Shown here piece after piece: positions 14,075 to 35,353 of a stretch of 52,432 nucleotides of DNA. The stretch covers positions 1-52,432 of the forward strand of contig CALXCP010000008.1 of the NCBI GenBank assembly GCA_944386845.1. Reading direction: 5' to 3'. Within the stretch, counting starts at the first letter, position 1, and every line of letters starts with the position of its first letter. The notes under the pieces are model-generated. The model made no database searches. It had not been told where the DNA came from and worked only from the letters and a program-made list of their open reading frames with translations. Origin of the DNA: an uncultured Oscillospiraceae bacterium. Lineage in GTDB: Bacteria > Bacillota > Clostridia > Oscillospirales > Oscillospiraceae. Position numbers and translations under genes: made by a program.

Positions 14075-14129
14075 TTGACAAACGCCTGAGGTTGTATTAT
14101 TGTATTAGTTGTTTAATACAATAATACAA
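14075..14129 (+). promoter_or_regulatory. promoter (TTGACA-17-TATTGT) overlapping a perfect 16-bp inverted-repeat operator
   Basis: TTGACA at 14075-14080. TTGTATTATTGTATTA (14092-14107) - GTTGTT - TAATACAATAATACAA (14114-14129) are exact reverse complements. Lies directly upstream of the GntR gene. Confidence 0.6.
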
Positions 14130-14146
14130 TGAAGGGAGCGGAGCCA

Positions 14147-14506
14147 ATGGAGTGGAAGTTCAGCGATGACCGGCCCATCTGGGTCCAGCTCAGCGAGCAG
14201 CTGGCCCGGCGGATCGTCACCGGGGCCTACCCGCCGGGGAGCAAGCTGCCCCCGGTGCGGGAGCTGGCCGCCGAGGCGGGGGTGAACCCCAACACCATGC
14301 AGCGGGCGCTGGCCCAGCTGGAGCAGGACGGCCTGGCCAGGGCCGACCGCACCGCCGGCCGGACGGTCACCGGGGACGCCGGGGTCATCGAGGCGGCCCG
14401 GATGGCCTACGCCAGGGTGAACATCGACGCCTATTTCGACGCCATGGCCGACCTGGGCTTTTCCAGGCAGGCTGCGGTGGACCTGGCCCGGGAGGCGGGA
14501 ACATGA
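14147..14506 (+). CDS. GntR-family transcriptional regulator, YtrA subfamily
   Basis: wHTH N-terminus (LPPVRELAAEAGVNPNTMQRALAQLEQDGL), short C-terminus. Start at ATG 14147 behind GAAGGGAG. Heads an ABC operon as in ytrA loci. Confidence 0.8.
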   Translation: MEWKFSDDRPIWVQLSEQLARRIVTGAYPPGSKLPPVRELAAEAGVNPNTMQRALAQLEQDGLARADRTAGRTVTGDAGVIEAARMAYARVNIDAYFDAMADLGFSRQAAVDLAREAGT

Positions 14507-14637
14507 GCTGCGACGCGCTGGAACGGGGGCGCCTGCTGTGCGCCCGGGAGGAGCTGGAACGCTATCTGCGCCGGATGGCGGAGCTGGGCATCGGCCCGGC
14601 GGAGGCCGTGGCGCTGCTGAAGGAGGAAGGACGATGA
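14503..14637 (+). CDS. 44-codon small ORF (MSCDALERGRLLCAREELERYLRRMAELGIGPAEAVALLKEEGR) translationally coupled at both ends
   Basis: ATGA overlap with the GntR stop and ATGA overlap with the ABC ATPase start. No homology recognised. Confidence 0.35.
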   Translation: MSCDALERGRLLCAREELERYLRRMAELGIGPAEAVALLKEEGR

Positions 14638-15359
14638 ACGAGACATTGGTGGAGTGCCGGGACCTGCGGAAGGTCTACGGCAGAAAGACGGCCCTGGACG
14701 GGGTGGACCTGTCCCTCGGGCGGGGGAGGATCGTGGGTCTGCTGGGCCCCAACGGGAGCGGCAAGACCACCCTCATCAAGATCCTGTGCGGGCTGATCCA
14801 GCCCACCGGAGGCGCCGCGGCGGTGGACGGCCGGGCGGTGGGGCCCTATACCAAGAGCATCATCAGCTATCTGCCCGACCGGATGTACTTCGCCGACTGG
14901 ATGCGGGCCAGCGACCTGTTCGACCTGTTCGGCGACTTCTACGCCGACTTCGACCGGAAGCGGGCGGAGGCCATGTGCCAGAGCCTCGGGGTGGACCCCC
15001 GGGACCGGATGAAGACCATGTCCAAGGGCACCAAGGAGAAGGTGCAGCTGGTGCTGGTGATGGCCCGGCAGGCCCAGCTCTACCTGCTGGATGAGCCCAT
15101 CGCCGGGGTGGATCCGGCGGCCCGGGACTTCATCCTCCACACCATCCTCACCAACTACAACGAGGCGGGCACCGTCCTCATCTCCACCCACCTCATCGGC
15201 GACATCGAGCGGGTGCTGGACGAGGCGGTGTTCCTGAAGGAGGGGAAGGTCACCCTCCACGACAGCGTGGACGGCATCCGGGAAAAGACGGGCAAGAGCG
15301 TGGACGCCCTGTTCCGGGATGTGTTCCGCGCCCAGCCCATGGAAGGAGGCGCGTTCTGA
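14634..15359 (+). CDS. ABC transporter ATP-binding protein (YtrB-like)
   Basis: Start MNETLVECRDLRKVYG behind GAAGGAGGAAGG. Walker A GPNGSGKTT, Walker B LLDEP. Confidence 0.9.
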   Translation: MNETLVECRDLRKVYGRKTALDGVDLSLGRGRIVGLLGPNGSGKTTLIKILCGLIQPTGGAAAVDGRAVGPYTKSIISYLPDRMYFADWMRASDLFDLFGDFYADFDRKRAEAMCQSLGVDPRDRMKTMSKGTKEKVQLVLVMARQAQLYLLDEPIAGVDPAARDFILHTILTNYNEAGTVLISTHLIGDIERVLDEAVFLKEGKVTLHDSVDGIREKTGKSVDALFRDVFRAQPMEGGAF

Positions 15360-16138
15360 TGCTGTGGAAGCTTTTGAAATACGATTTCCGCTCCATGTGG
15401 AAGCAGTTTGCCGTAGTCTGGCCGGCGGTCCTGGTCATCGGCCTGGTCAACCGGTTCACCCTGCCCTGGGAGGTGACGGGGAGCTCCGCCATGGCCAACG
15501 TCCCCGGCGCGGTGGGGGTCACCACTGTCATATTGCTCTTTGCCGGCCTGCTGGCCATGGGGGTGCTGGCCCTGGTGTTCATCCTCCAGCGGTTCTACAA
15601 GGGCCTGCTGGGGGACGAGGGCTACCTGATGCACACCCTGCCGGTGAAGCCCTGGCAGCTGGTGGCATCCAAGCTCATCTGCGCGGTGGTCATGCTGATC
15701 ATCAGCGGCGCCGTGGCCTTTCTGGCCATGCTGCTGATGGTGCCGGTGGATTGGAGCGCCCTGTTCCAGGAGGGCATCCTGGGCAACGTGATCCGCTGGG
15801 CCGCCACGAACCTCGGGGACGTGGCGGTGCTGCTGGAGATCGTCCTTCTGCTGGTGGAGGTGCTGGCCCTGATGGTGCTGACGTGCTACGCCGCCATGGC
15901 GGTGGGCCACCTCTTCCAGCGCCACCGGGTGGCCATGAGCGTGGTGGCCTTCGTGGTGCTGGACATCGTGATCAGCAACCTCACCGCCATCCTGGGCCGG
16001 CTGGCGGCCCCTCTGGAGATCTTCGCGGTGAACTCCCAGGTGGGCATCTGGGCGGTCATCCTGTACCAGGCCGTCCTGGGCGCCGCCCTCTTCGCCGGCG
16101 CCACCCTGGTCCTCAGCCGCCGGCTGAACCTGGAGTAA
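15359..16138 (+). CDS. ABC-2/YtrC-like membrane permease
   Basis: ATGA overlap with the ATPase gene. 6 predicted TM segments. Confidence 0.7.
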   Translation: MLWKLLKYDFRSMWKQFAVVWPAVLVIGLVNRFTLPWEVTGSSAMANVPGAVGVTTVILLFAGLLAMGVLALVFILQRFYKGLLGDEGYLMHTLPVKPWQLVASKLICAVVMLIISGAVAFLAMLLMVPVDWSALFQEGILGNVIRWAATNLGDVAVLLEIVLLLVEVLALMVLTCYAAMAVGHLFQRHRVAMSVVAFVVLDIVISNLTAILGRLAAPLEIFAVNSQVGIWAVILYQAVLGAALFAGATLVLSRRLNLE

Positions 16139-16170: not shown

Positions 16171-16215
16171 AAAAGCGAACGCGCTGCTCTGAAGCTCAGA
16201 GCAGCGCGTTCAGCG
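16171..16215. terminator. bidirectional terminator (perfect 16-bp stem)
   Basis: GAACGCGCTGCTCTGA-AGC-TCAGAGCAGCGCGTTC flanked by A-run and T-containing tracts. Overlaps the last codons of the Sir2 gene. Confidence 0.65.
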
Positions 16216-17065
16216 TCTTTCCGATGTCCCCGCCGACGCAGACAGACCGGGAGGCCAGCTCCCGGGGGGCGGTGGCCTGGCCGGCGTTGACCACGGCGTA
16301 GACTGCGTCCGGGTTTTGGGCGGTGAGCCGCCAGAAGGAGTACTTGATGATGCCCGGGGTGCTGTAGCCCACCCCCAGCTCCAGGTAGAGCACCCGGCCC
16401 GTTCGGTGCCGGCGGAGGAAGTCCTCATATCGGGCCGCCGCGGCGTACCAGCCCCCATCCTGGACGAAGGTGCCGTCGGTGCGCAGGTTCATGGCCATGG
16501 GGGCCCCGCACCTATGGCAGCGGGGGACCAGCCCGGAGGGGATCCGCATATCCCGCTGCTCCGCCGCCATCCGCCGGACGGCCGCCTCGTTGTCGTAGGT
16601 CTCCTGATGACAGGGCACTGAGCACTGCCACAGGCCGTAGTCCCCCTGGGTGTAGAACAGCCGCCCCTTGTCAAAGCCCGCCCGCTGGAAGCAGTGGTCC
16701 ACGTTGGTGGTGAGGACGAAGTGGTCCCGCTCTTCCAGCAGCCGGCGCAGGGCTTCGTACACCGGCCCGGGCGGGTCCCCGTACCGGTTGAGAAGGATGC
16801 TCCGGCTCCAGAAGGCCCACTGCTCCTCTGGGGTGGGGTAGGGGTAGAAGCCCCCGGTGTACATGTCGTGGAAGCCGTATCTGGCCTCAAAGTCGGCGAA
16901 GTGGGCCCGAAAGCGCGCCCCGCCGTAGTCGAAGCCGGCCGAGGCGGACAGACCGGCCCCGGCCCCCACCACCACCGCGTCCGCCCGGTCAAGGGCGGCC
17001 CGGAGCCGGTCAACAGAGTCCGAGCAGCTCCCGGTAGATGGAGGCATCTGTGTTTTGAAAGACAT
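16196..17065 (-). CDS. Sir2-family protein, SirTM-like (predicted ADP-ribosyltransferase rather than deacylase)
   Basis: GAGAGLSASAGFDYGG (sirtuin GAGIS...FR), TTNVDHCFQRAG (TQNIDxLHxxAG), Cys4 Zn ribbon CSVPC...CHRCG. The expected catalytic His in the (E)LHG motif reads TQG. Start uncertain; the ORF overlaps the macro gene by up to 56 nt. Confidence 0.7.
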   Translation of the reverse strand: MSFKTQMPPSTGSCSDSVDRLRAALDRADAVVVGAGAGLSASAGFDYGGARFRAHFADFEARYGFHDMYTGGFYPYPTPEEQWAFWSRSILLNRYGDPPGPVYEALRRLLEERDHFVLTTNVDHCFQRAGFDKGRLFYTQGDYGLWQCSVPCHQETYDNEAAVRRMAAEQRDMRIPSGLVPRCHRCGAPMAMNLRTDGTFVQDGGWYAAAARYEDFLRRHRTGRVLYLELGVGYSTPGIIKYSFWRLTAQNPDAVYAVVNAGQATAPRELASRSVCVGGDIGKTLNALL

Positions 17066-17798
17066 TGAAAATCACCCTCTTGATGCAGGTGGGGGCGGAC
17101 AAAAAACGGGTCACCGTCTCCACGGCAATCTCCGCCGCCGCCCGGTGGGGGAAGCGGAACTCCCCGGTGGAGATACAGCAGAAGGCCACGCTGCTCAGAC
17201 CATGCTCCGCCGCCAGGGACAGGCAGGACGTGTAGCAGGAGGCCAGAGCCGCCCGGTCCGCCGCCGTCACCGACCCGGAGACGATGGGACCCACGGTGTG
17301 GAGCACATGCCGGGCGGGCAGGTTATAGCCCGCCGTCAGCCTGGCCCGCCCGGCGGGCTCGGGGTATCCCTGGGCCGCCATGAGGCGGGCGCACTCGTCC
17401 CGGAGCTGGAGCCCCGCCGCCGAGTGGATGGCGTTGTCGATGCAGCCGTGGCAGGGGTGGAAGCAGCCCAGCAGGGCGGAGTTGGCGGCATTGACGATGG
17501 CATCGGCCCGCAGACGGGTGATGTCTCCCTGCCACAGCGCCACGCCGGGGCGCCCGGGGACCTCCGGCAGGGTCATGACGTCCACCGCGCCTCGCTCCGC
17601 CGCCTCGGCGGACAGGAGCCGGTCCTGGAGCCGGAGAAACTCCGGGTCCAGGGGCAGAGGCGGACGGATGTTCATCAGAGCCCGCAGGAGCCGCCGCGCC
17701 CCTTCCCGGGTCCGGAACTCCGCCGCCCAGAGGCGGCACTCGGGCATCTCGGCCAGCAGCATTTTGTTGAGCTGCTCGATCTGCCGCAGACGGTCCAT
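17010..17798 (-). CDS. macrodomain protein (MacroD-type, with extra Cys/His in catalytic loop, Zn-macro-like)
   Basis: ADAIVNAANSALLGCFHPCHGCIDNAIHSAAG matches the DAIVNAANxxLLGGGGVDGAIHRAAG core with a CFHPCHGC insertion. Confidence 0.85.
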   Translation of the reverse strand: MDRLRQIEQLNKMLLAEMPECRLWAAEFRTREGARRLLRALMNIRPPLPLDPEFLRLQDRLLSAEAAERGAVDVMTLPEVPGRPGVALWQGDITRLRADAIVNAANSALLGCFHPCHGCIDNAIHSAAGLQLRDECARLMAAQGYPEPAGRARLTAGYNLPARHVLHTVGPIVSGSVTAADRAALASCYTSCLSLAAEHGLSSVAFCCISTGEFRFPHRAAAEIAVETVTRFLSAPTCIKRVIFNVFQNTDASIYRELLGLC

Positions 17799-17827
17799 GG
17801 GGAGACCTCCTCTCTGAAAGCTGCCTG

Positions 17828-18625
17828 TCAGGGGAAGAAGAAGCCGGCGGTCATGTCCAAATAGTTCTCGCCGCTGTACTGAGGGTATCTCTTCTGTACC
17901 GAGGCCTTGAAGCTGTCCCGGTCGGCACTGGCGGCGGCGATGGCCTTCAGCTCCTTCAGATAGTCGATCTTGGTCCGGGCGTCCTTCAGGTCCTCGGGGG
18001 TGTAGTGGGAGGTGAGGATCAGGCCATAGCCCCGGGCGATATAGCTCTCCAACTGGGCGACCATGGCGTCGGCGTGGGACGCCCCGGCCACGATGGAGTG
18101 GCAGTCGTGGCCCAGCATGTGGGTGTACACGGCGTTGATCTCCGGGATCTCCACGTCAAAGGCGTCGGAGGTGGGGTGGATGACAAAGCCGATGCCGCCG
18201 ACGGTGACCCTCCCCTCCGACAAAATGTGGTCCGCCGCATGGATGGTGGGGTCGAAGGCGTCCCCAAAGGAGGCGGCAAAGCCGTCGATGAGCGCCCTGC
18301 CGCCTCCCCGGGCGGAGTAGTCCACCGCATTTTCCGTGGCGTATCTGGGCACGCCGGGCAGGAAGGACGCCCCGGCCCCGTGGTAGGCCACCAGCATCCC
18401 CGCCGGCTCCAGCGCCCGGTCCTTCAGGTAGGCGGTGAGCTCGGCGATGTTGTCGCGGAAGCAGGGGCTCTCGATGACCGCGGCTCTCCCGGCCTTCTCC
18501 ACCAGAAAGACCTCGTCGTCGATGGGGTCGTTGGTCTGGTAGGCGTGGAGCTTGACGGCGCCGAAGTCGTAGATGTGCATCTCGCCCTTGGGCAGCTTGA
18601 CGGTCTCGCAGGTGTTCTTGTTCAT
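17828..18625 (-). CDS. hypothetical protein, His-rich, possible metal-dependent hydrolase; first gene of the macro-Sir2 unit
   Basis: Start at MNKNTCETV behind GAGGAGG. His motifs HAADH, THMLGHDCH, SHYT. No confident family assignment. Confidence 0.45.
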   Translation of the reverse strand: MNKNTCETVKLPKGEMHIYDFGAVKLHAYQTNDPIDDEVFLVEKAGRAAVIESPCFRDNIAELTAYLKDRALEPAGMLVAYHGAGASFLPGVPRYATENAVDYSARGGGRALIDGFAASFGDAFDPTIHAADHILSEGRVTVGGIGFVIHPTSDAFDVEIPEINAVYTHMLGHDCHSIVAGASHADAMVAQLESYIARGYGLILTSHYTPEDLKDARTKIDYLKELKAIAAASADRDSFKASVQKRYPQYSGENYLDMTAGFFFP

Positions 18626-18730
18626 GATCAGGTTCCTCCTCGGGATGGTTTGGGGCGGTTCGTCCGCCGCTGTACCCTGATCATAGCGCGGCCCGGCGGG
18701 TTTGGCCAGTACGCACAAATTTGTGCCGTA

Positions 18731-18771
18731 GTCACCTTTCGGTGACCTTTGGACGGTCACCGGAAGGTGAC
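18731..18771. promoter_or_regulatory. tandem palindromic operator sites GTCACC-N4-GGTGAC (x2)
   Basis: GTCACCTTTCGGTGAC (18731-18746) and GTCACCGGAAGGTGAC (18756-18771) in the divergent intergenic region upstream of the HxlR gene. Confidence 0.5.
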
Positions 18772-18918
18772 TTTTTGGCGGCCCGTGGGTTCACGGGCAT
18801 GGTGGACGGCAAAAAAATTTTTGCCCGCCCCGGGCCCTTGACGGCCTCCGGTCCCGTGGGGTATGATGTCAGAGGATACCATACAGGACCCGGGAGAAGA
18901 CTGCAAGGGGGCGAGGGC

Positions 18919-19287
18919 ATGTCCGTGGACCTGGCGAAGCTGCCGGCCTGCCCGGTGGAGACCACCCTGCTGCTCATCAGCAGCAAGTGGAAGGTGCTCA
19001 TACTTCGGGACCTGCTCTCCGGCCCCCGGCGGTTCGGGGAGCTGCGCCGGTCCCTTGCCGGGGTGAGCCAGAAGGTGCTCACCGCCCAGCTCCGGGAGAT
19101 GGAGGAGGACGGACTGGTGGTCCGTACCGCCTACCCCGAGGTGCCGCCCCGGGTGGAGTACGCCCTGACCGGGCTGGGGATGAGCCTCAGACCGGTGATG
19201 GACGCCATGTGGAGCTGGGGCGAGGACTATCAGAAAAGCGCGTGCGCTGCCGGGGCGGACCCGGCGGGGCGGGAGAGGACGGAGTGA
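18919..19287 (+). CDS. HxlR-family winged-helix transcriptional regulator
   Basis: [36 protein letters not shown]...[10 protein letters not shown] is a classic HxlR core. Start at ATG 18919. Confidence 0.85.
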
Positions 19288-19289
19288 CC

Positions 19290-19859
19290 ATGATGAACTG
19301 GGACGAGCTGGAGCAGACCTGTCTGAGCTGCCGGAAGTGCGGCCTGGCGGACACCCGCACCCACGTGGTGTTCGGGGTGGGGAGCCGGGACGCGGAGGTA
19401 CTTTTCGTGGGCGAGGGCCCCGGGGAGAACGAGGACCTGCAGGGGGAGCCCTTCGTGGGCCGGGGGGGCAAGCTGCTGGACGAGATGCTCACCATCATCG
19501 ACCTGGACCGGACAAAGAACATCTACATCGCCAACATCGTCAAGTGCCGCCCGCCCCAGAACCGGGACCCCCTGAACACCGAGCAGGACGCCTGCATCGG
19601 ATATCTCCGGAACCAGGTGTCCCTGCTGCGGCCCAAGATCATCGTCTGTCTGGGCCGCATCGCCGCCATGAAGCTCATCAAGGAGGACTTCAAGATCACC
19701 CGGGAGCACGGCCAGTGGTTCCAGAAGAGCGGGGTGTGGATGACCGCCCTGTACCACCCCGCCGCCCTGCTCCGGGACCCCCGGCGCAAGCCTGAGACCT
19801 TCGACGACCTGAAATCCATCCAGGCCAAGATCCGGGAGGTCTGCGACCACACCTATTGA
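19290..19859 (+). CDS. uracil-DNA glycosylase, family 4 (Fe-S type)
   Basis: CRKC...GEGPGENED...HPAALLR motifs. Starts 3 nt after the hxlR stop. Confidence 0.85.
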
Positions 19860-19923: not shown

Positions 19924-20580
19924 TCATACGGGGTAGCCGTCGCCGGCCACCGTGAGGCGGACGCCGTCCGGCGTCCGGGCCAGGGACACCTGGACCTTGC
20001 CCACCGTCCACAGGGAGGTCGGGTCTCCGTCCTCCCCGGAGGCGAGGCCGTAGGTCTCCTCCAGCCAGGTCAGGCCGGCCTGCCAGGCGGCATCCACGGC
20101 GGCCTGGTCCGTGCCGGAAAAGTCGTACCACCCGGCCCGCAGCTTGCCGTCCCCGTCGAAGCGGTAGACCGCCGTGGCCTCCAGGCCGCCCACGGGGACC
20201 CCCTCCTGGGCCAGATGCCAGTACCGCCAGTCGGCCTCCGCCGCGATCTCCTCCGCCGGGGTGCCGTAGGGGAAGCCGTCGAAGCCGTCCTCCTCCCCGG
20301 GCTCCGCCGGGGGCTGGCCGTCGGCCGGGACATACTCCCCGGCGGCCAGCCGGCCTTCCCCGTCCAGACGGTAGAGGACGGTGACATCCTCCTCCGACCG
20401 GACCAGGGCGAAGTCCCCACCCGTCTGGATCACGTCGGTCAGCCGGGTGCCCCAGGGCACGCCCTGGAACCCGCTGATCTTGTCCTTCGAGCGGCTGACG
20501 GTGACCGCCGCCGCGATGCACAGCACCACCACGCACACCGCCATGGCCGCCGCGATGATCTTGCTGGCTTTTTCCTTCAT
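19924..20580 (-). CDS. membrane-anchored hypothetical protein with internal YR(L/F)DG(E/D)G repeats (paralog family A)
   Basis: N-terminal TM helix. Repeated modules YRLDGEGRLAAGEY / YRFDGDGKLRAGWY. Shares motifs with the products of 22460..23599 and 23637..24200. Confidence 0.6.
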   Translation of the reverse strand: MKEKASKIIAAAMAVCVVVLCIAAAVTVSRSKDKISGFQGVPWGTRLTDVIQTGGDFALVRSEEDVTVLYRLDGEGRLAAGEYVPADGQPPAEPGEEDGFDGFPYGTPAEEIAAEADWRYWHLAQEGVPVGGLEATAVYRFDGDGKLRAGWYDFSGTDQAAVDAAWQAGLTWLEETYGLASGEDGDPTSLWTVGKVQVSLARTPDGVRLTVAGDGYPV

Positions 20581-22136: not shown

Positions 22137-22373
22137 ATGAAATGCCCGTTCTGCGGCGGAGAGATGGCCCGGGGCGCCCTGTCCCTGGAGCGCCGCTTCG
22201 CCGAGTTCAACGAAGCCCCGACCAAATACATCGGTCTGCGGGACAGCCTGGGCAGACCGATCCGCATCAACTGGTTCAAGATCGAGAAGGAGTCGGCCTG
22301 GTGCTGCCCGGCCTGCCGGAAGATCATCCTGGACTACCCGGAGGGGGAACAGGAGACCAGCGGGCAGGGCTGA
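22137..22373 (+). CDS. small zinc-ribbon protein (CxxC...CxxC)
   Basis: MKCPFCGG...WCCPACRK. Good RBS GAGAGGAGG. Confidence 0.6.
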   Translation: MKCPFCGGEMARGALSLERRFAEFNEAPTKYIGLRDSLGRPIRINWFKIEKESAWCCPACRKIILDYPEGEQETSGQG

Positions 22374-22459
22374 CCGGGGGACCGAAGAAGACCACCGAAA
22401 ACAGGGCGCGGGCTGTGGACAGCCCGCGCCCGTTTCAACGCAGGAAAGGAGGACCTGAC

Positions 22460-23599
22460 ATGAAACGCAGAATTTTGGCTCTGACTCTGGCGGCGGCTCT
22501 GGCTTTGATTTGCGCCGCCTGCACCCCCGCCGGCGAGACGCCGGAGGACACCGCCCCGGCGGAGACCGGGAACACCGCCCCGGCGGACCACGACTTCAGC
22601 GGCGCGGTGCTGGACGAGTACACCGAGACCCTCACCGGCTTCGGCGGCCTGCCTTGGGGCTATGTGCTGCCCCGGGAGACGGCGGACGCCCTGGCCACCG
22701 AACAGAACGAGACCATCGCCCTGACCACCGTGGAGGAGTTTGCCGGGCTCACCTTCCGCATGGAGCGCATCTTCAGCTACACCGACGGCATCCCCGGCCT
22801 GAGAGAGGGGCAGCGGGCCCTGACCATGGGGCGGTACGTTGAGACGGGCTTCCTGTCTCCCGACGACCCGGAGGGCGGGACCGCCACGGCGGTGGAGTGG
22901 TTCGACCAGACCCTGGCCTATCTCACCGGGCTGTACGGTCAGCCCGACAGCTATACCCTCAGCGGGGACGATGAGGAGCTCGCCGCCCCCCTGACGGCGG
23001 AGCAGTACACCGCCGAGGGGGTGACGGCCTGCACGGCGGCGTGGACCGGCCTGGAGAACGGGCAGGTGACCCTGCGGCTGGCGGACAGCTACGGCCTGTC
23101 CCTGACCGTCACCTTCGCCCCCGGCGCCGAGACCCTGCGGAATTCCGGACAGACGGCGGACCTCACCCTGAGCGGGATGGACGCCCCGGGCCTGGCCGCC
23201 GACGTGGCCGGGTTCGAGGACGCCCTGTGGGGGGACAGCCTCCAGTCGGTGCTGGACGGAAAGGACTGGGAACACATGGAGCTGAGAGGGGAGAGCGCCG
23301 CCTTCGGCGGGATGCCCGCCGAGGCGTACTACGCCTTTGAGGACGGCGCCCTGTACGCCGGCTACTACGTGCTGAACGCCGGGGAGGGCAACGAGTCCGC
23401 CCTGACCCGGGCGGTGGTGGACTACCTCACCGAACTGTACGGCTCGCCGGACATCCCCCAGACCCCCGGCGAGACCAACATGATCGCCTGGTCCAATGAG
23501 GCCGGCCAGCCCAAGGCGGGGACCTCGGGACCCGTGGTGTACACCTTTGACAACGGCGACGTCCACGTGTGCTTCTACGCCGCCGGCGACCGGAACTAA
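22460..23599 (+). CDS. putative lipoprotein, paralog family A (379 aa)
   Basis: Signal peptide MKRRILALTLAAALALICAAC. FGGLPWG and YYAFEDGALYAGYY motifs. Track ORF trimmed to the ATG behind GAAAGGAGGA. Confidence 0.65.
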   Translation: MKRRILALTLAAALALICAACTPAGETPEDTAPAETGNTAPADHDFSGAVLDEYTETLTGFGGLPWGYVLPRETADALATEQNETIALTTVEEFAGLTFRMERIFSYTDGIPGLREGQRALTMGRYVETGFLSPDDPEGGTATAVEWFDQTLAYLTGLYGQPDSYTLSGDDEELAAPLTAEQYTAEGVTACTAAWTGLENGQVTLRLADSYGLSLTVTFAPGAETLRNSGQTADLTLSGMDAPGLAADVAGFEDALWGDSLQSVLDGKDWEHMELRGESAAFGGMPAEAYYAFEDGALYAGYYVLNAGEGNESALTRAVVDYLTELYGSPDIPQTPGETNMIAWSNEAGQPKAGTSGPVVYTFDNGDVHVCFYAAGDRN

Positions 23600-23636
23600 C
23601 GACAGGCAGACCGACGAACGGAAGGGAGGAGCTGAT

Positions 23637-24200
23637 ATGAAGCGCAGGATCCTGGCCCTGACTCTGGCGGCGGCTCTGGCCCTGCTGTGCGCCGCCTGCA
23701 CCCCCGCCGGAGAGACACCGGAGGACACCGCCCCGGCGGTGACGCTCCCCTCCGGCGCGTGCACCGGCTTCGGCGGGCTGGAGTGGGGAGACTCCTATGA
23801 GACCCTGTTCCCCGGGGACGAGATCCCGGAGGCCGCCCGGCGGGACTATCAGCTGGACGGCTGGCCCTGCACGGCGGTGTACGCCTTCGACGGGGACGGC
23901 CTGCTGTGGTCGGGGCAGTACGAGTTCCGGCCTGACCGGGCCGACATCCCGGCGGTGCTCCGGGCGGCGCTGGCGGCCATGACCGAGGCCTATGGCGAGC
24001 CCCAGCCCGCCTATACCACCACGGATGACTGGGAGACGGTCCCGGCCCCTACGGTGGAGGATGTGGAGGCGGGAACAGCGGACTTCTGTCTCTACATCTG
24101 GGGCGGCCTGGACGACGGCGGGGTCAGCCATGTCAACGCCAGCCTCCAGCTCCAGGACGGGGTGGTCTACCTGGCCATGTACCAGTCCCCGGCAAAATAA
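23637..24200 (+). CDS. putative lipoprotein, paralog family A (187 aa)
   Basis: Near-identical signal peptide MKRRILALTLAAALALLCAAC. FGGLEWG, VYAFDGDGLLWSGQYEF. RBS GAAGGGAGGAG. Confidence 0.65.
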   Translation: MKRRILALTLAAALALLCAACTPAGETPEDTAPAVTLPSGACTGFGGLEWGDSYETLFPGDEIPEAARRDYQLDGWPCTAVYAFDGDGLLWSGQYEFRPDRADIPAVLRAALAAMTEAYGEPQPAYTTTDDWETVPAPTVEDVEAGTADFCLYIWGGLDDGGVSHVNASLQLQDGVVYLAMYQSPAK

Positions 24201-24252: not shown

Positions 24253-24441
24253 CCGCGCTCCGAAGGGGACCACAAGATATGGTGTCCAAAAAATGACCCC
24301 GCCACCGTATCCGGGGGAGAGGCTGGGGGGACTGATACCTTTTGTAACCAATTTTTTTCGCGGCAGAAAGGAAGAAAAAGGGAAAAACCTGCGGAGCCTT
24401 GGGACAGAAGGACTTTCCCGGAAAAAAATTTGAAAAAAGTA

Positions 24442-24470
24442 TTGCAATTTGTTTACATAACCTGTATACT
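24442..24470 (+). promoter_or_regulatory. dcw-cluster promoter TTGCAA-17-TATACT (mraZ promoter)
   Basis: Near-consensus hexamers with a 17-nt spacer in the A/T-rich gap upstream of mraZ. Confidence 0.65.
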
Positions 24471-24480
24471 GAAAACCACA

Positions 24481-24498
24481 GTGGAGCAAAGTGGAGCG
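24481..24498 (+). promoter_or_regulatory. MraZ-box-like direct repeats GTGGAGC x2 (10-bp phasing)
   Basis: GTGGAGCAAAGTGGAGCG immediately downstream of the -10. A further GTGGGGAGG lies at 24522-24530. Confidence 0.4.
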
Positions 24499-24542
24499 TT
24501 TTAGATGAAAAACCCACGAAAGTGGGGAGGGAGGTGGACAGC

Positions 24543-24959
24543 TTGACCGGCACCTATGAGCACGGCATCGACGCCAAGGGCAGGCTGTTCATCCCGGCCA
24601 AGCTCCGGGAGGAGCTGGGCACCACCTTCTACCTGGCCATGGGGGTGGACGCCTGCCTGGCCATCTACCCCCTGTCCACCTGGGAGCGCTTCACCGAGAA
24701 GTTCGCCTCCCTGCCCATGAGCCAGTCGGCCGCCATGCGGCCCCTGTTCGCCAACGCCGCCAAGTGCGAGCCCGACACCCAGGGCCGCATCGTCATCCCC
24801 CAGAAGCTGCGGCAGTACGCCGGCCTGGACAAGGACGCGGTGATCATCGGGGTCAACGACCGGGCCGAGATCTGGGCGGCCGACGCCTGGAAGGCCCGGG
24901 AGGAAGAGGAGATGACCCCCGAGAAGATGCGGGCCTGTCTGGAGGCCCTGGGCTTCTGA
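24543..24959 (+). CDS. mraZ: transcriptional regulator MraZ
   Basis: TGTYEHGIDAKGRLFIPAKLREELG and a second DxxGR repeat (DTQGRIVIPQKLRQ). No in-frame ATG near the domain start. Probable TTG start 8 nt after GGAGGGAGG. Confidence 0.8.
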   Translation: MTGTYEHGIDAKGRLFIPAKLREELGTTFYLAMGVDACLAIYPLSTWERFTEKFASLPMSQSAAMRPLFANAAKCEPDTQGRIVIPQKLRQYAGLDKDAVIIGVNDRAEIWAADAWKAREEEEMTPEKMRACLEALGF

Positions 24960-24960
24960 G

Positions 24961-25899
24961 ATGGGGGAGACCTTCACCCACCGCCCGGTGCTCCTGCGGG
25001 AGTGTATCGAGGCGCTGAACATACGGCCTGACGGCGTCTATGTGGACGGTACCCTGGGCCGGGCGGGCCACAGCGCCGAGATCGCCCGGCGGCTCACCAC
25101 CGGGCGGCTCATCGCCATCGACCGGGACCGGGCGGCCCTGGAGGCCGCGGAGGAGCGGCTGGCCCCCTGGATGGACCGGGTGACCCTGGTCCACGGGAAC
25201 TTCGCCGACCTGGCCGATATCCTGGACGGGGCCGGCGCGGCCGGGGCGGACGGGATGCCCTTCGACCTGGGGGTGTCCTCCCCCCAGTTGGACGACGGGA
25301 GCCGGGGCTTCTCCTACATGGCGGACGCCCCGCTGGACATGCGCATGGATCAAAGCGCCGGACTCACCGCGGCCGAGGTGGTGAACACCTGGCCCCGGGA
25401 GGAGCTGCGGCGCATCCTGTACGAGTACGGCGAGGAGCGCTATGCCCCCCAGATCGCCGCCGCCATCGAGGCCCGGCGGATGGAAAGGCCCATCGGGACC
25501 ACCCTGGAGCTGGTGGACGTGATCAAGGGCGCCATGCCGGCCAGGGCCCTGCGGGAGAAGCAGCACCCCGCCAAGCGATCCTTCCAGGCTATCCGCATCG
25601 CGGTGAACGACGAGCTGGGGGCGGTGGAGCGGATGCTGGACGCGGCGGTGCCCCGGCTGGATCCCGGCGGGCGGCTGGCGGTGATCTCCTTCCACTCCCT
25701 GGAGGACCGGATCGTCAAGCTGAAGCTGGCCGGCTGGGCCAGGGGCTGCACCTGCCCCCCCGATTTCCCGGTGTGCGTGTGCGGGAAAAAGCCCCAGGTG
25801 AAGCTGATCGGCCACAAGCCCATCCTCCCTGGCGAGGAGGAGCTGAACGAGAACCCCCGTGCCCGGAGCGCCAAGCTGCGGGTGGCGGAGAAGCTGTAA
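24961..25899 (+). CDS. rsmH: 16S rRNA (cytosine1402-N4)-methyltransferase RsmH
   Basis: HRPVLLRECIEAL...YVDGTLGRAGHS...FDLGVSSPQLD motifs. Confidence 0.9.
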   Translation: MGETFTHRPVLLRECIEALNIRPDGVYVDGTLGRAGHSAEIARRLTTGRLIAIDRDRAALEAAEERLAPWMDRVTLVHGNFADLADILDGAGAAGADGMPFDLGVSSPQLDDGSRGFSYMADAPLDMRMDQSAGLTAAEVVNTWPREELRRILYEYGEERYAPQIAAAIEARRMERPIGTTLELVDVIKGAMPARALREKQHPAKRSFQAIRIAVNDELGAVERMLDAAVPRLDPGGRLAVISFHSLEDRIVKLKLAGWARGCTCPPDFPVCVCGKKPQVKLIGHKPILPGEEELNENPRARSAKLRVAEKL

Positions 25900-25924
25900 A
25901 ACGCGAGAGAGAGGAGCCCCTGCG

Positions 25925-26482
25925 ATGGCGAGTCTGGCAGAGAAGCGGATGATGACCCGGTATCAGAGCTACGGCAACGTGGCCTATGCCCCTCAGTACG
26001 CCGGCGGCACGGTGCGCGTGCCCCGGGAGGAGGAGATCTACCGTCCCCGTCCCACCGTGCGCCCCCGGGAGCGGGCCATCGCCCGGCCCCAGGTGGACGT
26101 CCGCCCGGCGGGGCGGGTGGCCCCCTTCGCGGTACTGGGCTTCCTGGCGGCGGCGGTGTGCGCCGCGCTGCTGGTGTTCAGCTATGTGCAGCTGACGGTG
26201 CTCACCGATCAGGCCGCCGCGGCCCGCAGCGAGCTCTCCGCCCTGGAGACGGAGCACTCCACCCTGGCGGCGCAGTATGAGAGCACCTTTGACCAGGCAA
26301 GCCTGGAGGCCGCCGTGGGCGGCTACATGACCAAGCCGGACAGCAGCCAGTATATCTACATCGACCTGTCCGAGGCGGACGCCGTGGTGGTCTACGACCA
26401 GGAGCCCGTCTGGAGCGGCGCGGCCGGCCTGTTCCAGGGGGCGGCCGAGGTGGTGGGCAACGTGGTGGAATACTTCCGCTGA
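25925..26482 (+). CDS. ftsL: FtsL-like cell division protein (bitopic, coiled-coil)
   Basis: Position after rsmH. Single TM (FAVLGFLAAAVCAALLVF) followed by a coiled coil. RBS GAGAGGAG. Confidence 0.55.
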   Translation: MASLAEKRMMTRYQSYGNVAYAPQYAGGTVRVPREEEIYRPRPTVRPRERAIARPQVDVRPAGRVAPFAVLGFLAAAVCAALLVFSYVQLTVLTDQAAAARSELSALETEHSTLAAQYESTFDQASLEAAVGGYMTKPDSSQYIYIDLSEADAVVVYDQEPVWSGAAGLFQGAAEVVGNVVEYFR

Positions 26483-26518
26483 GCCCGCCATACCATGTGA
26501 CAGAAACACAGACCATCT

Positions 26519-26568
26519 GGGCGTAAGAAAAGGAGGCAGGACACGAAGCCTTTTCTTACGCCCTTTTG
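26519..26568 (+). terminator. intrinsic terminator-like hairpin inside dcw cluster (possible attenuator)
   Basis: GGGCGTAAGAAAAGG...CCTTTTCTTACGCCC (15-bp stem) followed by TTTTG, between ftsL and the PBP gene. Confidence 0.5.
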
Positions 26569-26585
26569 CCGGGAGGTGAGGAGAG

Positions 26586-28979
26586 ATGCGGGAACAGGAC
26601 AGACGGGGGGCGGACCGGCCGGAGGGGGGCGACCGCCCCCAGCGCACCCACGACCGCCGGGCCAACAAGGTGATCCTCCAGCGCAGCATCTTCCTCATGG
26701 CGGTGTGCGGGGTGCTCATGTTCCTCCCCCTGATCTGGACGCTGTGGCAGATCTGCATCGTGCAGCACGACTACTACCAGGAGCTGGCCGTCCGGCAGCA
26801 GACCCGGGACGTGGAGGTCAGCGCCATGCGGGGGGACATCCTGGACCGCAACGGCAACGTGCTGGCCATGTCGGCCACGGTGTACAACCTGATCCTCTCC
26901 CCCCGGGACGTCATCAACAGCGTGGACGAGAAGGACTATCAGAATGAGGACGGCGTCACCGACCAGACCCTCTATCAGGCGGCCGTCGCCGCGAAAAAGG
27001 CCGCCATCGTGGACGGCCTTTGCGCCGTTCTCCCCCAGCTGGACCGGGCCGACGTGGAGGAGCGCATGGGGCGGGACTCCGCCTATCAGATCCTGGCCCG
27101 GGACCTGGAGCGGGAGGACTCCACCGCCGTGCGGGAGTACATCAGCGAGAACAAGCTCAGCGCCTGCGTCTATCTCACCCCCAGCTCCAAGCGGTATTAC
27201 CCCTACTCCAGCCTGGCCGCCCAGGTGGTGGGCTTCGTCAACGACAACGGCGGGGCCTATGGGGTGGAGGCCCTGTATGACGAGGAGCTGTCGGGCACGG
27301 TGGGCCGGGTGGTCACCGCCAAGGCCAACAACGGCACCGAGATGCCCAACGGCTGGTCCAACTACGTGGACGCCTCCGACGGCAGCGACGTCACCCTCAC
27401 CATCGACGTGAACATCCAGCAGTTCGCCGAGCAGGCGGTGCAGCAGGGCATCGAGGCCTACAACGCCCAGGGGGGCGGCATCTGCATCGTCATGGACCCG
27501 GACACCGGGGCCATCCTGGCCCACGTCAGCGTCCCCACCTATGACCTGAACCAGCCCGGCGCCGTCATCGACAAGAGCCTGTCCGCCTCGCTGGAGGCCC
27601 TGCGGGGCGACCCGGCGGGCACCGACGAGGCCTATGACCAGGCGGTGAGCGACGCCCGCTTCCAGCAGTGGCGCAGCAAGGTGGTCAACGACACCTATGA
27701 GCCGGGCTCCACCTTCAAGGCGGTGGTGCTGGCCGCCGCTCTGGAGGAGGGGGTGGTGTCGGAGAGCGACACCTTCTACTGCCCCGGCTATACCGTTGTC
27801 AACGGGGAGCACATCGCCTGCTCCAAGGCCAGCGGCCACGGCAGCCAGACCCTGCGGGAGGCGGTGCAGAACTCCTGCAACCCCGCCTTCATCGAGATCG
27901 GCCAGCGGCTGGGAGCCGAGAAGTTCTACGAGTACTTCGAGACCTTCGGCATGACCGAGGTCACCGGGGTGGACCTGATCGGGGAGACCAAGGGCCTGGC
28001 CTGGACGGAGGACTACTTTACCTCCGCCGAGGGCTACCTGTCCCTGGCCACCGCCTCCTTCGGCCAGCGCTTTACGACGACCCCCATCCGGATGATCACC
28101 GCCTTTGCCGCCACCATCAACGGCGGATACCTCTATCAGCCCTATGTGGTGGACCGGATCAGCGACTCGGAGGGCAACCTCATCCGGCAGACCGAGCCCA
28201 CCGTGGTGCGCCAGACGGTGAGTGAGGCCACCAGCGCCCACACCAGCGAGATCCTGGAGTCGGTGGTCAGCGAGGGCACCGGCGGCAACGCCTATGTGGA
28301 GGGATACCGGGTGGGCGGCAAGACCGGCACCTCCCAGACCCTGGTGGGGGAGCACGACTACATCGTTTCCTTCATGGGCTACGCCCCGGCGGACGACCCG
28401 GAGGTCATCGTGCTGCTGGCCCTGTACTATCCAGAGTGGGACTACGGCATGTACTCCACCAGCGGCACCTACATCAGCGGCGGCCAGATGGCAGCCCCCC
28501 TGGTGGGCCAGGTCATCGAGGAGACCCTGGAGTACATGGGGGTGGAGCGGGAGTACACCGCCGAGGAGGCCAACGCCGCCGACGTGGAGGTGCCCCAGCT
28601 GGTGGGCCTGTCCGCCGCCGACGCCAAGACCCGGCTGGAGCGGGCCGGCCTGGGCTGCCGCACCGTGGGCGACGGGGACACCGTCACCGGCCAGATCCCC
28701 GCCCGGGGCACGTCCATCCCCGGGGAGAGCCAGGTGGTGCTCTACCTGGGTGAGGAGATGCCCACCGAGCCGGTCACCGTCCCCGACGTGACGGGCAAGA
28801 CCCTGGAGGGGGCCCGGGCGGCCCTGGCCGAGGCGGGCCTGTACATGCGGGCCAGCGGCGTGTCCACCTACTACACCTCGTCCACCCTGGCCATCGACCA
28901 GTCGGTCCAGGGCGGGGAGACGGCGGCCCCCGGCACCGTCATCGAGGTGCGCTTCGCCAACAACAACGTCTACGACTGA
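26586..28979 (+). CDS. class B penicillin-binding protein (FtsI/PBP2B/SpoVD family) with two C-terminal PASTA domains
   Basis: STFK, SCN, KTGT active-site motifs. Two PASTA-like repeats (VPQLVGLSAADAK..., VPDVTGKTLEGAR...). Confidence 0.9.
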   Translation: MREQDRRGADRPEGGDRPQRTHDRRANKVILQRSIFLMAVCGVLMFLPLIWTLWQICIVQHDYYQELAVRQQTRDVEVSAMRGDILDRNGNVLAMSATVYNLILSPRDVINSVDEKDYQNEDGVTDQTLYQAAVAAKKAAIVDGLCAVLPQLDRADVEERMGRDSAYQILARDLEREDSTAVREYISENKLSACVYLTPSSKRYYPYSSLAAQVVGFVNDNGGAYGVEALYDEELSGTVGRVVTAKANNGTEMPNGWSNYVDASDGSDVTLTIDVNIQQFAEQAVQQGIEAYNAQGGGICIVMDPDTGAILAHVSVPTYDLNQPGAVIDKSLSASLEALRGDPAGTDEAYDQAVSDARFQQWRSKVVNDTYEPGSTFKAVVLAAALEEGVVSESDTFYCPGYTVVNGEHIACSKASGHGSQTLREAVQNSCNPAFIEIGQRLGAEKFYEYFETFGMTEVTGVDLIGETKGLAWTEDYFTSAEGYLSLATASFGQRFTTTPIRMITAFAATINGGYLYQPYVVDRISDSEGNLIRQTEPTVVRQTVSEATSAHTSEILESVVSEGTGGNAYVEGYRVGGKTGTSQTLVGEHDYIVSFMGYAPADDPEVIVLLALYYPEWDYGMYSTSGTYISGGQMAAPLVGQVIEETLEYMGVEREYTAEEANAADVEVPQLVGLSAADAKTRLERAGLGCRTVGDGDTVTGQIPARGTSIPGESQVVLYLGEEMPTEPVTVPDVTGKTLEGARAALAEAGLYMRASGVSTYYTSSTLAIDQSVQGGETAAPGTVIEVRFANNNVYD

Positions 28980-29022
28980 GCGCCTTACAGAGAATGAAAC
29001 CCCATCCCCGGAGGGGAGCGGC

Positions 29023-29547
29023 ATGACAGAAGGAGGACGCCCCGCCATGGCCGTGGCGGGGGGAGAGCGGCAGGCGGCCCTGCTGCGGGACCTGCTGGCC
29101 CGGACGGGCCGGGGGGAGTGGCAGGTGCTGCCCCTGTCCCGGGCGGCCGGCCCCCTGACGGTGGCCAGCCTGGGGGAGCTGGACTGGCCCGGCCTGGGCC
29201 GGGCGGTGCGGGAGGACCGCATCGCCCTGGCGGTGCTGGACCTGGACGCCCCCCTGAGCCGCTACTGGCTGGAGGCGGGGCTCACCCCCTGCCTGACCTA
29301 CTCGGAGAACAAGGACCGGGCCGACCTGACCGCCAAGAACCTGGTCCCCCTGCCCGGGGGCGGGGTGCGGTTCGAGGCCCTGTGGCGGGACGCCCTGTGC
29401 CGGGTGACCCTGGCCCCGGGGAGCTGCTCCCTGTACCAGGCGCTGGAGGTCATGGCCTGCGCCCGGGCGGCGGGGGTGGAGCCGGCCCAGTCGGCGGCCT
29501 ACCTCAGCGCCCTGCCCGCCGGACGGCCTGTTACCATTTGTGGTTGA
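29023..29547 (+). CDS. hypothetical protein (occupies the slot where murE/murF usually lie)
   Basis: 174-aa ORF with RBS GGAGGGGAG filling the 640-bp gap between the PBP gene and mraY. No recognisable family. Could be spurious GC-driven. Confidence 0.35.
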   Translation: MTEGGRPAMAVAGGERQAALLRDLLARTGRGEWQVLPLSRAAGPLTVASLGELDWPGLGRAVREDRIALAVLDLDAPLSRYWLEAGLTPCLTYSENKDRADLTAKNLVPLPGGGVRFEALWRDALCRVTLAPGSCSLYQALEVMACARAAGVEPAQSAAYLSALPAGRPVTICG

Positions 29548-29572
29548 AAAGAGGGGCGCCCTGTGATACACT
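29544..29572 (+). promoter_or_regulatory. internal promoter TTGAAA-17-TACACT upstream of mraY
   Basis: Hexamers at 29544-29549 and 29567-29572. Confidence 0.45.
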
Positions 29573-29620
29573 GGCGTGCCCGCGCAAAAGAAATGAGATC
29601 CCCCGGGGGAGGAGAAGGAA

Positions 29621-30607: not shown

Positions 30608-30645
30608 CCGGCGCCCCCATCTGAACCCGGAAAGGAGGTCCCCCC

Positions 30646-31857: not shown

Positions 31858-31935
31858 TGAGGAATTAGGAGTTAGGAATTAGGAATTGCCGAAGCTCCGA
31901 ACATTCCTAATTCCTAATTTCTAATTTGATGAACG
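31858..31935. repeat. tandem/inverted TTAGGAA heptamer repeat element (AT-rich hairpin)
   Basis: GGAATTAGGAGTTAGGAATTAGGAATTG ... CATTCCTAATTCCTAATTTCTAATTTG; the two halves are near reverse complements. Confidence 0.6.
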
Positions 31936-31948
31936 GGGTGTATCATCC

Positions 31949-33070: not shown

Positions 33071-33133
33071 GGGAACGGCCCCGCCGCCCCCCACATAGGA
33101 TGGCCTGAGACCACCAATGTGGGAGGGTGTTTC

Positions 33134-34396: not shown

Positions 34397-34416
34397 GGAA
34401 CGAACAGGAGAACACC

Positions 34417-35193: not shown

Positions 35194-35232
35194 CCGCCGG
35201 CCCGGGCCGGTGAAAAAAAGCCGCCCCGGCTC

Positions 35233-35261
35233 TTGACCTGAGGGGAAAAGAGCGATACAAT
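35233..35261 (+). promoter_or_regulatory. ftsZ promoter TTGACC-17-TACAAT
   Basis: Hexamers at 35233-35238 and 35256-35261. Confidence 0.6.
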
Positions 35262-35353
35262 ATAACAAAATATAGACACACTGGGGGCGTCCCGACACAA
35301 GGGTTTGTTTTTCGCCCCCTTATGACAGTTTTACAACACAGGAGGAACCGCGT

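Follow-up and report, generated by a model that had tools for sequence, protein, structure and literature searches.

A class-M sirtuin and zinc macrodomain pair encoded with a metallo-beta-lactamase-fold protein beside an HxlR-family regulator in a gut Oscillospiraceae bacterium

What role does a Sir2-like enzyme play when it is encoded with a macrodomain and a protein of no assigned family? The question is raised by three genes on the minus strand of a 52,432-nucleotide stretch of DNA from an uncultured Oscillospiraceae bacterium (NCBI GenBank assembly GCA_944386845.1, contig CALXCP010000008.1, positions 1 to 52,432), which is referred to in full as the window. An initial reading of these letters, the original prediction, had described a minus-strand unit of an unknown protein, a macrodomain and a Sir2 protein, with the last two acting as writer and eraser of ADP-ribosylation. 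The open reading frames and the tight junctions between them agree with that unit, and comparison with solved structures and family models bears out the pair as a class-M sirtuin (SirTM) and a zinc macrodomain (Zn-Macro). We consider it probable that the locus is a stress-regulated ADP-ribosylation operon controlled by an HxlR-family regulator, in which a stand-alone SirTM/Zn-Macro pair is combined with interchangeable redox cargo that includes the unassigned protein, here called X265.

The first gene of the operon encodes X265 (17828-18625, minus strand) and specifies 265 amino acids from an ATG preceded by GAGGAGG. It is separated by a gap of 29 nt, containing the ribosome-binding-like sequence GAGAGGAGG, from the Zn-Macro gene (17010-17798, minus strand; 262 amino acids), the product of which is a predicted protein-ADP-ribose hydrolase. 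The SirTM gene follows (16196-17065, minus strand; 289 amino acids) and encodes a predicted protein mono-ADP-ribosyltransferase dependent on nicotinamide adenine dinucleotide (NAD). Its ATG at 17065 is preceded by the ribosome-binding-like AGAGGGTGA, and its overlap with the macrodomain gene, initially put at about 40-56 nt, measures 56 nt. The sole promoter-like site for the three genes lies just upstream of X265 (18708-18680, minus strand), and an intrinsic-terminator-like hairpin with a 17-bp stem followed by CTTTTT (16176-16212, minus strand) overlaps the SirTM stop codon. Judged from these signals, X265, Zn-Macro and SirTM form one operon that runs from a promoter-like site to a single strong terminator. 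Independent gene calls on four public metagenome contigs with an identical X265 give the same lengths for the regulator (122 amino acids), X265 (265) and the macrodomain (262) on all four, and 289 amino acids for SirTM on the three contigs where that gene is complete. In these public records, X265 and the sirtuin are both without a Pfam assignment.

The Sir2-like protein is a class-M sirtuin and, from its sequence, a predicted protein ADP-ribosyltransferase. It matches SpySirTM of Streptococcus pyogenes (PDB 5a3a; phmmer E 1.8e-74, residues 19-276) and the SirTM part of a fungal protein in which Macro and SirTM are fused (PDB 8rsn; E 7.6e-25). About half of the aligned residues are identical to SpySirTM in the pairwise view, and 43% are identical in an alignment of eight sequences comprising the window protein, six relatives and SpySirTM (alignment A3). 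The Pfam SIR2 model scores 20.4 bits, under its cut-off of 24, which explains why the gene is unnamed in public annotation. Three segments spanning 16481-16705 on the minus strand, TTN(121)VD, FYTQ(140)GD and NLR(195)TD, align with N118 (TTN(118)AD), Q137 (FHIQ(137)GE) and R192 of SpySirTM, with the numbering offset of the latter taken from the pairwise alignment. Asn121 is encoded at 16703-16705, Gln140-Gly141 at 16643-16648 and Arg195 at 16481-16483. These residues are invariant in A3, as are the four cysteines of the zinc ribbon recognized in the initial reading, placed by alignment at C148, C152, C183 and C186 (16508-16624, minus strand). In SpySirTM, N118, Q137 and R192 are required for ADP-ribosylation (Rack et al., 2015, PMC4518038), a set that has been summarized as “QG-R” (PMC8120803).

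The original prediction had treated the replacement of the catalytic histidine by glutamine as a peculiarity of this protein. The replacement is real, with Q140 falling on Q137 of SpySirTM and no intact catalytic histidine in the alignment, but it is not an oddity, since the change from the sirtuin HG to QG is absolutely conserved in class M and is its most distinctive feature (Rack et al., 2015, PMC4518038). A comparison with SIRT5, in which a SirTM profile puts QG on the HG of the deacylase, agrees, although this is a weak alignment with a marginal E of 0.39. The glutamine also bears on a more conventional explanation of the locus, that of an ordinary CobB-like deacylase working with an O-acetyl-ADP-ribose deacetylase of the YmdB/MacroD-like type. 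CobB-type deacylase models of NCBIfam do match the sirtuin, but at about 25 bits against cut-offs of 243-320, and glutamine stands in place of the catalytic histidine in all eight aligned sequences. For published SirTMs, moreover, no deacylase activity could be measured (PMC4518038).

The macrodomain leads in the same direction. It matches O-acetyl-ADP-ribose deacetylase models, but these and every other macrodomain model of NCBIfam remain under their cut-offs, and only the “protein-ADP-ribose hydrolase” model of the Zn-Macro type is exceeded (NF003163; 316.4 bits against a cut-off of 272). Taken with the sirtuin residues, this makes an ordinary deacylase and deacetylase pair extremely improbable. 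The protein matches the Pfam Macro model (8.1e-36), contains the NAAN motif, and finds PDB 8rsi (E 1.1e-73) and the S. aureus Zn-Macro (5kiv/8rsl; E ∼7e-65) among solved structures; the 8rsi alignment begins at residue 29 and spans about 85 residues ahead of the macrodomain core, the part in which the N-terminal helical bundle that stabilises the zinc loop of Zn-Macros would be expected. Its loop reads GC(112)FHPCH(117)GC(119)IDNAIH(125), and GCFHPCHGCIDNAIH aligns with GCFIPMHNCIDNIIH of 8rsi and GCMQANHDCIDNIIH of 5kiv. The zinc loop thus placed by alignment (17424-17465, minus strand) consists of C112-x4-H117-x-C119 (17442-17465) and D121-x3-H125 (17424-17438), the eight-residue zinc motif and Dx3H motif described for Zn-Macros (Ariza et al., 2024, PMC11490716). 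A CFHPCHGC insertion in the catalytic loop had been proposed at the outset; the zinc pattern is present, with C112, H117 and C119 alone matching the published ligand pattern, but the segment is no insertion and instead substitutes for the glycine-rich catalytic loop. By these comparisons, the macrodomain is a Zn-Macro, a zinc-dependent MacroD-type protein and the predicted eraser of ADP-ribose.

Another use of Sir2 proteins, anti-phage defence by an NAD-depleting SIR2, has also to be weighed for this pair. SIR2 domains are frequent in defence systems, and a weak Pfam SIR2 match like the one seen here is found in many defence SIR2 proteins. The sirtuin is nonetheless an orthologue of SpySirTM at the E-value given above, and no PADLOC model is matched by any of the three operon proteins. 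The surroundings are housekeeping in character (the dcw cluster, an ATP-binding cassette (ABC) transporter, Feo and tRNA synthetase genes), and the arrangement is stable over dozens of species, unlike that of defence islands. The PADLOC result and the housekeeping context effectively refute the defence reading, which we rejected as scarcely credible.

Pfam models for GcvH-L (GCV_H) and lipoate ligase (BPL_LplA_LipB) match none of the plausible genes in the 52-kb window, as the original prediction had stated for GcvH-L and LplA2. The pair is flanked on one side by X265 and on the other by a convergent ABC-transporter operon, with the terminator directly after SirTM. Bacterial SirTM/Macro pairs exist as independent operons, extended operons or fusions (PMC4518038; PMC11490716), and stand-alone pairs in Clostridia and Methanobrevibacter have been listed (PMC11490716, Fig. 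1A and Table S3). The enzyme pair of the window is therefore an ordinary member of the published SirTM/Zn-Macro system and belongs to its stand-alone class. The suggestion of a minimal or re-targeted module survives in so far as GcvH-L and LplA2 are missing, but not as a new form, because stand-alone pairs had already been published. As in the pairs of Hydrogeniiclostridium mannosilyticum, Dorea formicigenerans, Clostridium asparagiforme and Methanobrevibacter oralis, the two enzymes are adjacent and partly overlapping, the sirtuin carries QG-R and the macrodomain C-x4-H-x-C with Dx3H, GcvH-L and LplA2 are missing, and the host is clostridial. The published description of stand-alone pairs stops at two genes, whereas the pair of the window makes up the 3′ end of a longer operon that includes a metallo-beta-lactamase (MBL)-fold protein and has a divergent HxlR regulator, and related species replace the MBL-fold cargo by flavoproteins.

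The extended operon found in S. aureus and S. pyogenes (GcvH-L, Zn-Macro, SirTM, LplA2, OYE and LLM) offers a second comparison. The writer and eraser are homologous, the genes overlap, redox enzymes are co-encoded, and a link to oxidative stress would be expected; the extended operon is associated with the OYE and LLM flavoenzymes and responds to oxidative stress by induction (PMC11490716). Unlike the extended operon, the window has no GcvH-L or lipoate ligase, the proteins encoded with its pair bear no relation to OYE and LLM, being of the MBL fold here and of the PNPOx type in relatives, and its host is a commensal anaerobe rather than a pathogen. No SirTM target other than GcvH-L is known, and the targets and physiological role of other pairs have been stated to be unknown (PMC11490716). 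The Zn-Macros of stand-alone pairs are unable to remove the modification from GcvH-L (PMC11490716), and for this reason the target in this organism probably differs from GcvH-L. We found no mention in the literature of a SirTM with a metallo-beta-lactamase or an HxlR regulator, in a search that most subscription journals lie outside of, and the architecture, with its MBL-fold family, PNPOx-type alternatives and HxlR regulator with palindromes, appears to be undescribed.

Which protein, then, is encoded ahead of the pair? X265 has no significant match in Pfam, NCBIfam, PADLOC or the sequences of the PDB when searched as a single sequence, nor in the PDB when searched with a 58-sequence profile; the best profile match is to an uncharacterised protein (E 0.075), and the best MBL-type matches have E-values of 0.64 and 1.2. 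An AlphaFold2 model built from 31 sequences has a mean predicted local distance difference test (pLDDT) of 84.6 and a predicted template modelling score (pTM) of 0.84, and a Foldseek search with it returns matches at E 1.7e-9 and a template modelling score (TM-score) of 0.62. X265 is a cytosolic protein, and fold comparison alone placed it, giving it the alpha-beta/beta-alpha fold of the metallo-beta-lactamases. Its nearest structures are 8d2z from Burkholderia cenocepacia (function unknown), B1 and B3 beta-lactamases, the chlorothalonil dehalogenase 6uxu and PqsE (2q0j). These are only 10-19% identical to X265, which differs from the superfamily in having no Pfam Lactamase_B match and a C-terminal third that is helical. 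The HxHxDH motif is reduced to Y-H82-G-A-G-A after the corresponding strand, and the conserved set is instead H82, H169, H176 and H207, together with H27, E52 and E211. Given the absence of HxHxDH and of a family match, we class X265 as an MBL-fold protein and not as a canonical MBL hydrolase.

Conservation within the family points to the same histidines. In an alignment of 58 sequences reaching down to 27% identity (A2), H169 and H176 are invariant, and H82, H207, H27, E52 and E211 are present in at least 90%; in a set of 70 sequences, the fractions are 0.94 for H82, 1.00 for H169, 0.99 for H176 and 0.96 for H207. The subfamily found next to SirTM additionally fixes C55, H129, H173-D174-C175, H184 and D186. 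The initial label of “His-rich” can be accepted in part, with 11 histidines per 265 residues. From this pattern, X265 is probably a metal-binding, non-canonical MBL-fold protein with a function of its own, in which the four histidines would form a site that is probably mononuclear and may be catalytic.

The family is large. Homologues of X265 number 2947 in a database of 5.8 billion proteins and fall into 546 clusters at 50% identity; the best 120 are 246-273 amino acids long, nearly all 263-265, and the few named at source are hypothetical proteins. Relatives are encoded in at least 478 species-level genomes, and the best 80 of these are almost all from Oscillospiraceae, Ruminococcaceae and unclassified Clostridia. 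Many distant stand-alone relatives carry signal peptides or lipoprotein signals, and distant homologues fused to SLH, ABM-monooxygenase, SnoaL and transglutaminase/Big_2 domains were also seen (P0125, P0147, P0157, P0181 and P0192). From the signal peptides and fusions it follows that, outside the SirTM-linked subfamily, the family is largely extracytoplasmic.

These features can be set against the idea that X265 is an MBL-fold hydrolase within the ADP-ribose cycle, either as a second eraser or as an enzyme that processes ADP-ribose or an NAD-derived product. The conserved histidine cluster would suit catalysis, and at three loci X265 and SirTM occur with no Macro, where another hydrolase might be wanted. 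With HxHxDH absent, however, the classic binuclear hydrolytic site cannot form, and among solved structures X265 lies closest to beta-lactamases, a dehalogenase and a thioesterase rather than to nucleotide phosphodiesterases. The macrodomain is kept in most X265 loci, and X265 also occurs where neither enzyme is present and has relatives that are often secreted. A hydrolytic role in the cycle is accordingly very unlikely in our judgement, if somewhat less so than a deacylase or defence function for the pair.

To see how firmly X265 is tied to the two enzymes, loci were sampled from both directions. One sample, centred on X265, consists of the best 80 of the at least 478 species genomes, with one genome per species. 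The other, centred on SirTM, consists of the 80 top-scoring loci out of at least 581 metagenome matches, with SirTMs 57-68% identical to that of the window; it is a sample of close relatives, with Lachnospiraceae, spirochaetes and Methanobrevibacter outside it. From the X265 side, X265, Macro and SirTM lie on the same strand and in that order at 63 of the 80 loci, 23 of which have a PNPOx-Fer4 gene in between, encoding a PNPOx-like flavin mononucleotide (FMN) domain fused to two 4Fe-4S motifs. X265 is followed directly by SirTM, with no macrodomain, at three loci (L052, L057 and L073), is found with Macro and a SirTM that is cut off or absent at four, and stands alone with ample flanking sequence at seven; three loci are too short to judge. 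SirTM is thus present at about 66 of the 77 informative X265 loci (∼86%). Across loci, identity to the window protein is 68-85% for X265, 48-81% for Macro and 49-70% for SirTM, and the layout, including the divergent HxlR gene, persists where the X265 homologue is no more than 57% or 45% identical. The operon is carried by the cultured Clostridium leptum DSM 753 (L018), Bianquea renquensis NSJ-32 (L049) and Ruminococcus sp. Marseille-P6503 (L059).

The three loci without a macrodomain each encode HxlR, X265 (∼6001-6792) and SirTM with no macrodomain gene nearby, the L052 sequence ending about 600 nt past SirTM. In these, the writer is present without its usual eraser.

From the SirTM side the picture differs. 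Macro is adjacent at 55 of the 59 loci with enough upstream sequence, and HxlR lies within 6 kb at 40 of the 51 with room to show it, but X265 is found at only four of the 59 (∼7%). In its place, between HxlR and Macro, there is a PNPOx_N protein of about 140 amino acids (22 loci), the PNPOx-ferredoxin fusion (22) or the S component of an energy-coupling factor (ECF) transporter (9), and in further cases there are nitroreductases, a SnoaL lipoprotein, an NAD(P)H-binding protein or a radical-SAM/SPASM enzyme accompanied by a Cys-rich repeat peptide. Conservation of the operon in relatives, which the original prediction had left to be established, therefore holds when judged from X265 and fails when judged from SirTM.

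The radical-SAM/SPASM cargo is seen at L085, L095, L109 and L111, about 1.5-2.7 kb into the sequence (for example, L095:2389-2721 and L109:1552-2583), beside a small open reading frame with repeat units such as AACGAACGAGDKPEEKP. The repeats are Cys-rich and resemble the precursors of ribosomally synthesized and post-translationally modified peptides. L095 and L109 also have an inverted order, with the macrodomain gene after SirTM.

The asymmetry between the two samples matters most for the proposal, raised in the original prediction, that X265 is the dedicated substrate of SirTM, replacing lipoyl-GcvH-L. In this account, ADP-ribosylation of a conserved site, acidic or Cys/His, would switch X265 on and off, and Zn-Macro would reset it. 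There is precedent for such an arrangement, in that the only known SirTM target is encoded within the SirTM operon itself (PMC4518038). The high rate at which X265 loci carry SirTM, the adjacency of X265 and SirTM in the three species without a macrodomain, the persistence of the layout at low X265 identity and the stronger conservation of X265 than of either enzyme all fit it. Against it stands the rarity of X265 at closely related SirTM loci, most of which have other cargo. SirTMs linked to X265 are also no closer to one another (65.3% identity) than to unlinked ones (65.7%) and form no clade of their own. The seven X265 copies without the pair have no distinguishing position; no residue that could serve as a candidate modification site separates them from the SirTM-linked proteins. 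That relatives are frequently secreted, or joined to unrelated domains, further speaks for a family function independent of ADP-ribosylation. As X265 is nearly always found with the module and the module readily dispenses with X265, an accessory or regulated protein is to be expected, and a substrate role is not implied. We regard X265 as dedicated substrate as doubtful. The same doubt attaches to a fuller form, in which X265 in Oscillospiraceae and related gut Clostridia would be the physiological target or obligate partner of SirTM, with a metal-dependent activity in redox or detoxification chemistry that reversible ADP-ribosylation would switch under a thiol-sensing HxlR regulator.

A separate candidate signal of co-evolution between SirTM and X265 was discarded. 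Nearest neighbours share a label in 95 of 125 cases, yet the mean identities are equal, and the signal reflects species relatedness.

Control of the operon is suggested by its divergent neighbour. The regulator gene (18919-19287, plus strand) encodes 122 amino acids with Cys11 in PACPVETT, and its product matches the Pfam HxlR model at 3.6e-32 (110.5 bits against a cut-off of 20.8); the closest NCBIfam model is that of the Campylobacter redox regulator RrpB (1.1e-34, below its cut-off). The cysteine is kept in 101 of 102 HxlR orthologues at related loci, and a divergent HxlR gene lies less than 500 bp upstream of X265 at 54 of the 80 X265 loci. Between the two genes is a control region of 293 bp (18626-18918) containing palindromes and promoter-like sites, the one toward HxlR being at 18838-18867 on the plus strand. 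GTCACC-N4-GGTGAC occurs just twice in the window, at 18731-18746 and 18756-18771, where chance would give 0.38 matches; a third palindrome, GCACAAATTTGTGC at 18713-18726, is found nowhere else in the window. The divergent arrangement and tandem palindromes had been recognized from the start; the start codon of HxlR, by contrast, is the ATG at 18919 and not the upstream TTG proposed initially.

HxlR-family regulators such as YodB, HypR and QorR use an N-terminal cysteine to sense quinones, diamide and hypochlorite, and control genes of the nitroreductase and azoreductase type. The regulator of the window resembles the thiol-based HxlR/DUF24 proteins YodB and HypR of Bacillus subtilis, QorR of Corynebacterium and RrpA/RrpB of Campylobacter in its winged-helix domain and N-terminal cysteine, in the divergent arrangement and palindromic sites, and in the nitroreductase- and flavoprotein-type genes under its likely control, while the sequence of the binding site differs. 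To our knowledge, no thiol-based HxlR/DUF24 member controls an ADP-ribosylation system. By analogy, and by its conserved N-terminal cysteine, the regulator is most likely a redox sensor of the HxlR family that would respond to a stress trigger.

The pieces can be assembled into a working model of the HxlR-controlled operon. Oxidative or electrophile stress would induce the operon, most likely through the regulator thiol. SirTM would then use NAD+ to mono-ADP-ribosylate a protein target, and the zinc macrodomain would hydrolyse the mark. X265 would be one of several interchangeable redox-type cargo genes between HxlR and Macro-SirTM, the alternatives being PNPOx-like flavoproteins, the PNPOx-ferredoxin fusion, a nitroreductase or an NAD(P)H-binding protein. 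The candidate targets are X265, one of the other cargo proteins or the product of a gene elsewhere, and the modification may tune a redox or detoxification function, much as ADP-ribosylation shields lipoyl-GcvH-L from oxidation in S. aureus (PMC12440151).

Several observations weigh against this model. Redox cargo is common beside HxlR regulators generally, so that its presence gives no proof of a tie to ADP-ribosylation. The exact GTCACC-N4-GGTGAC operator has no match in the 80 related loci; a palindrome search of each region finds GTTACC-N4-GGTAAC with GCACAA-N2-TTGTGC or AAAGTGC-N-TACTTT at the equivalent place between the genes, and therefore the type of palindrome is conserved and the sequence is not. 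The promoter-like site of X265 sits downstream of the palindromes, beside rather than over them, and for that reason repression and activation by HxlR cannot be told apart from the sequence. Confidence in the X265 model is lowest in the loops that carry H169-H176 and H207 (pLDDT 57-65). The co-occurrence percentages are estimates, because the two samples are unequal and consist of the 80 best-scoring loci each. More broadly, what is at hand for this clade is sequence, fold and synteny, and everything beyond them is inference.

The genes farther out describe the setting of the operon. A family-4 uracil-DNA glycosylase gene (19290-19859, plus strand) begins 2 nt after the HxlR stop codon, and from this spacing it is probably co-transcribed with HxlR in the window organism. 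The original prediction had listed it as a neighbour of the module; it is real but incidental, as it is adjacent in one of 80 related loci, and we rejected it as part of the module. The HxlR-glycosylase arrangement of the window is missing from 79 of the 80, and L001 has the opposite gene orientation. On the other side, the operon that converges on the SirTM terminator (14129-16138, plus strand) encodes a GntR regulator, an ABC ATPase and a 259-residue membrane protein with no Pfam match, and public contigs from this organism carry the GntR/ABC neighbours as well.

A complete dcw cell-division and cell-wall cluster (24399-36505, plus strand) encodes MraZ, MraW, a penicillin-binding protein with PASTA domains, MraY, FtsW, MurG, a MurA-like protein, FtsQ and FtsZ, and marks the region as core chromosome. 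The SirTM operon is thus chromosomal, in an uncultured gut bacterium of the Oscillospiraceae type. Feo iron transport and tRNA synthetase genes are also found in the window. Toward its end, a giant open reading frame of 3159 amino acids (39196-48675, minus strand) contains BspA-type leucine-rich repeats, YDG, MBG and three C-terminal S-layer-homology domains, and its product is presumably a cell-surface protein. Adjoining it is a gene for a tyrosine recombinase of the phage-integrase family with an N-terminal SAM-like domain (49006-49857, minus strand), which may be XerC/D-like or mark a mobile element. Sizeable open reading frames with no Pfam match and a coding-like GC content at third codon positions lie at 22142-23599, 23496-24200, 25859-26482 and 38342-39130 on the plus strand and at 19924-20580 on the minus strand.

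The enzyme pair itself adds nothing new, as both the histidine-to-glutamine change and the absence of GcvH-L and LplA2 are already in the literature, and the value of the locus is in its genomic context. The window and about 150 relatives indicate that gut Clostridia usually encode the pair at the tail of an operon under HxlR control, and that the upstream genes come from a small recurring redox set comprising an MBL-fold family, flavoproteins of the PNPOx type, the PNPOx-ferredoxin fusion and a nitroreductase. The question left open for pairs outside the GcvH-L operon (PMC11490716) is thereby narrowed to a few candidate substrates and a candidate signal for induction. A SirTM system described as typical of pathogens is extended to abundant commensal anaerobes, and an MBL-fold family that lacks a family assignment, with the thousands of homologues and hundreds of species genomes counted above, is brought to attention. 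If X265 were the target, it would be the first SirTM substrate besides GcvH-L, and the locus would define a third, lipoylation-independent type of SirTM operon, with the flavoprotein cargos of sister operons as alternative targets.

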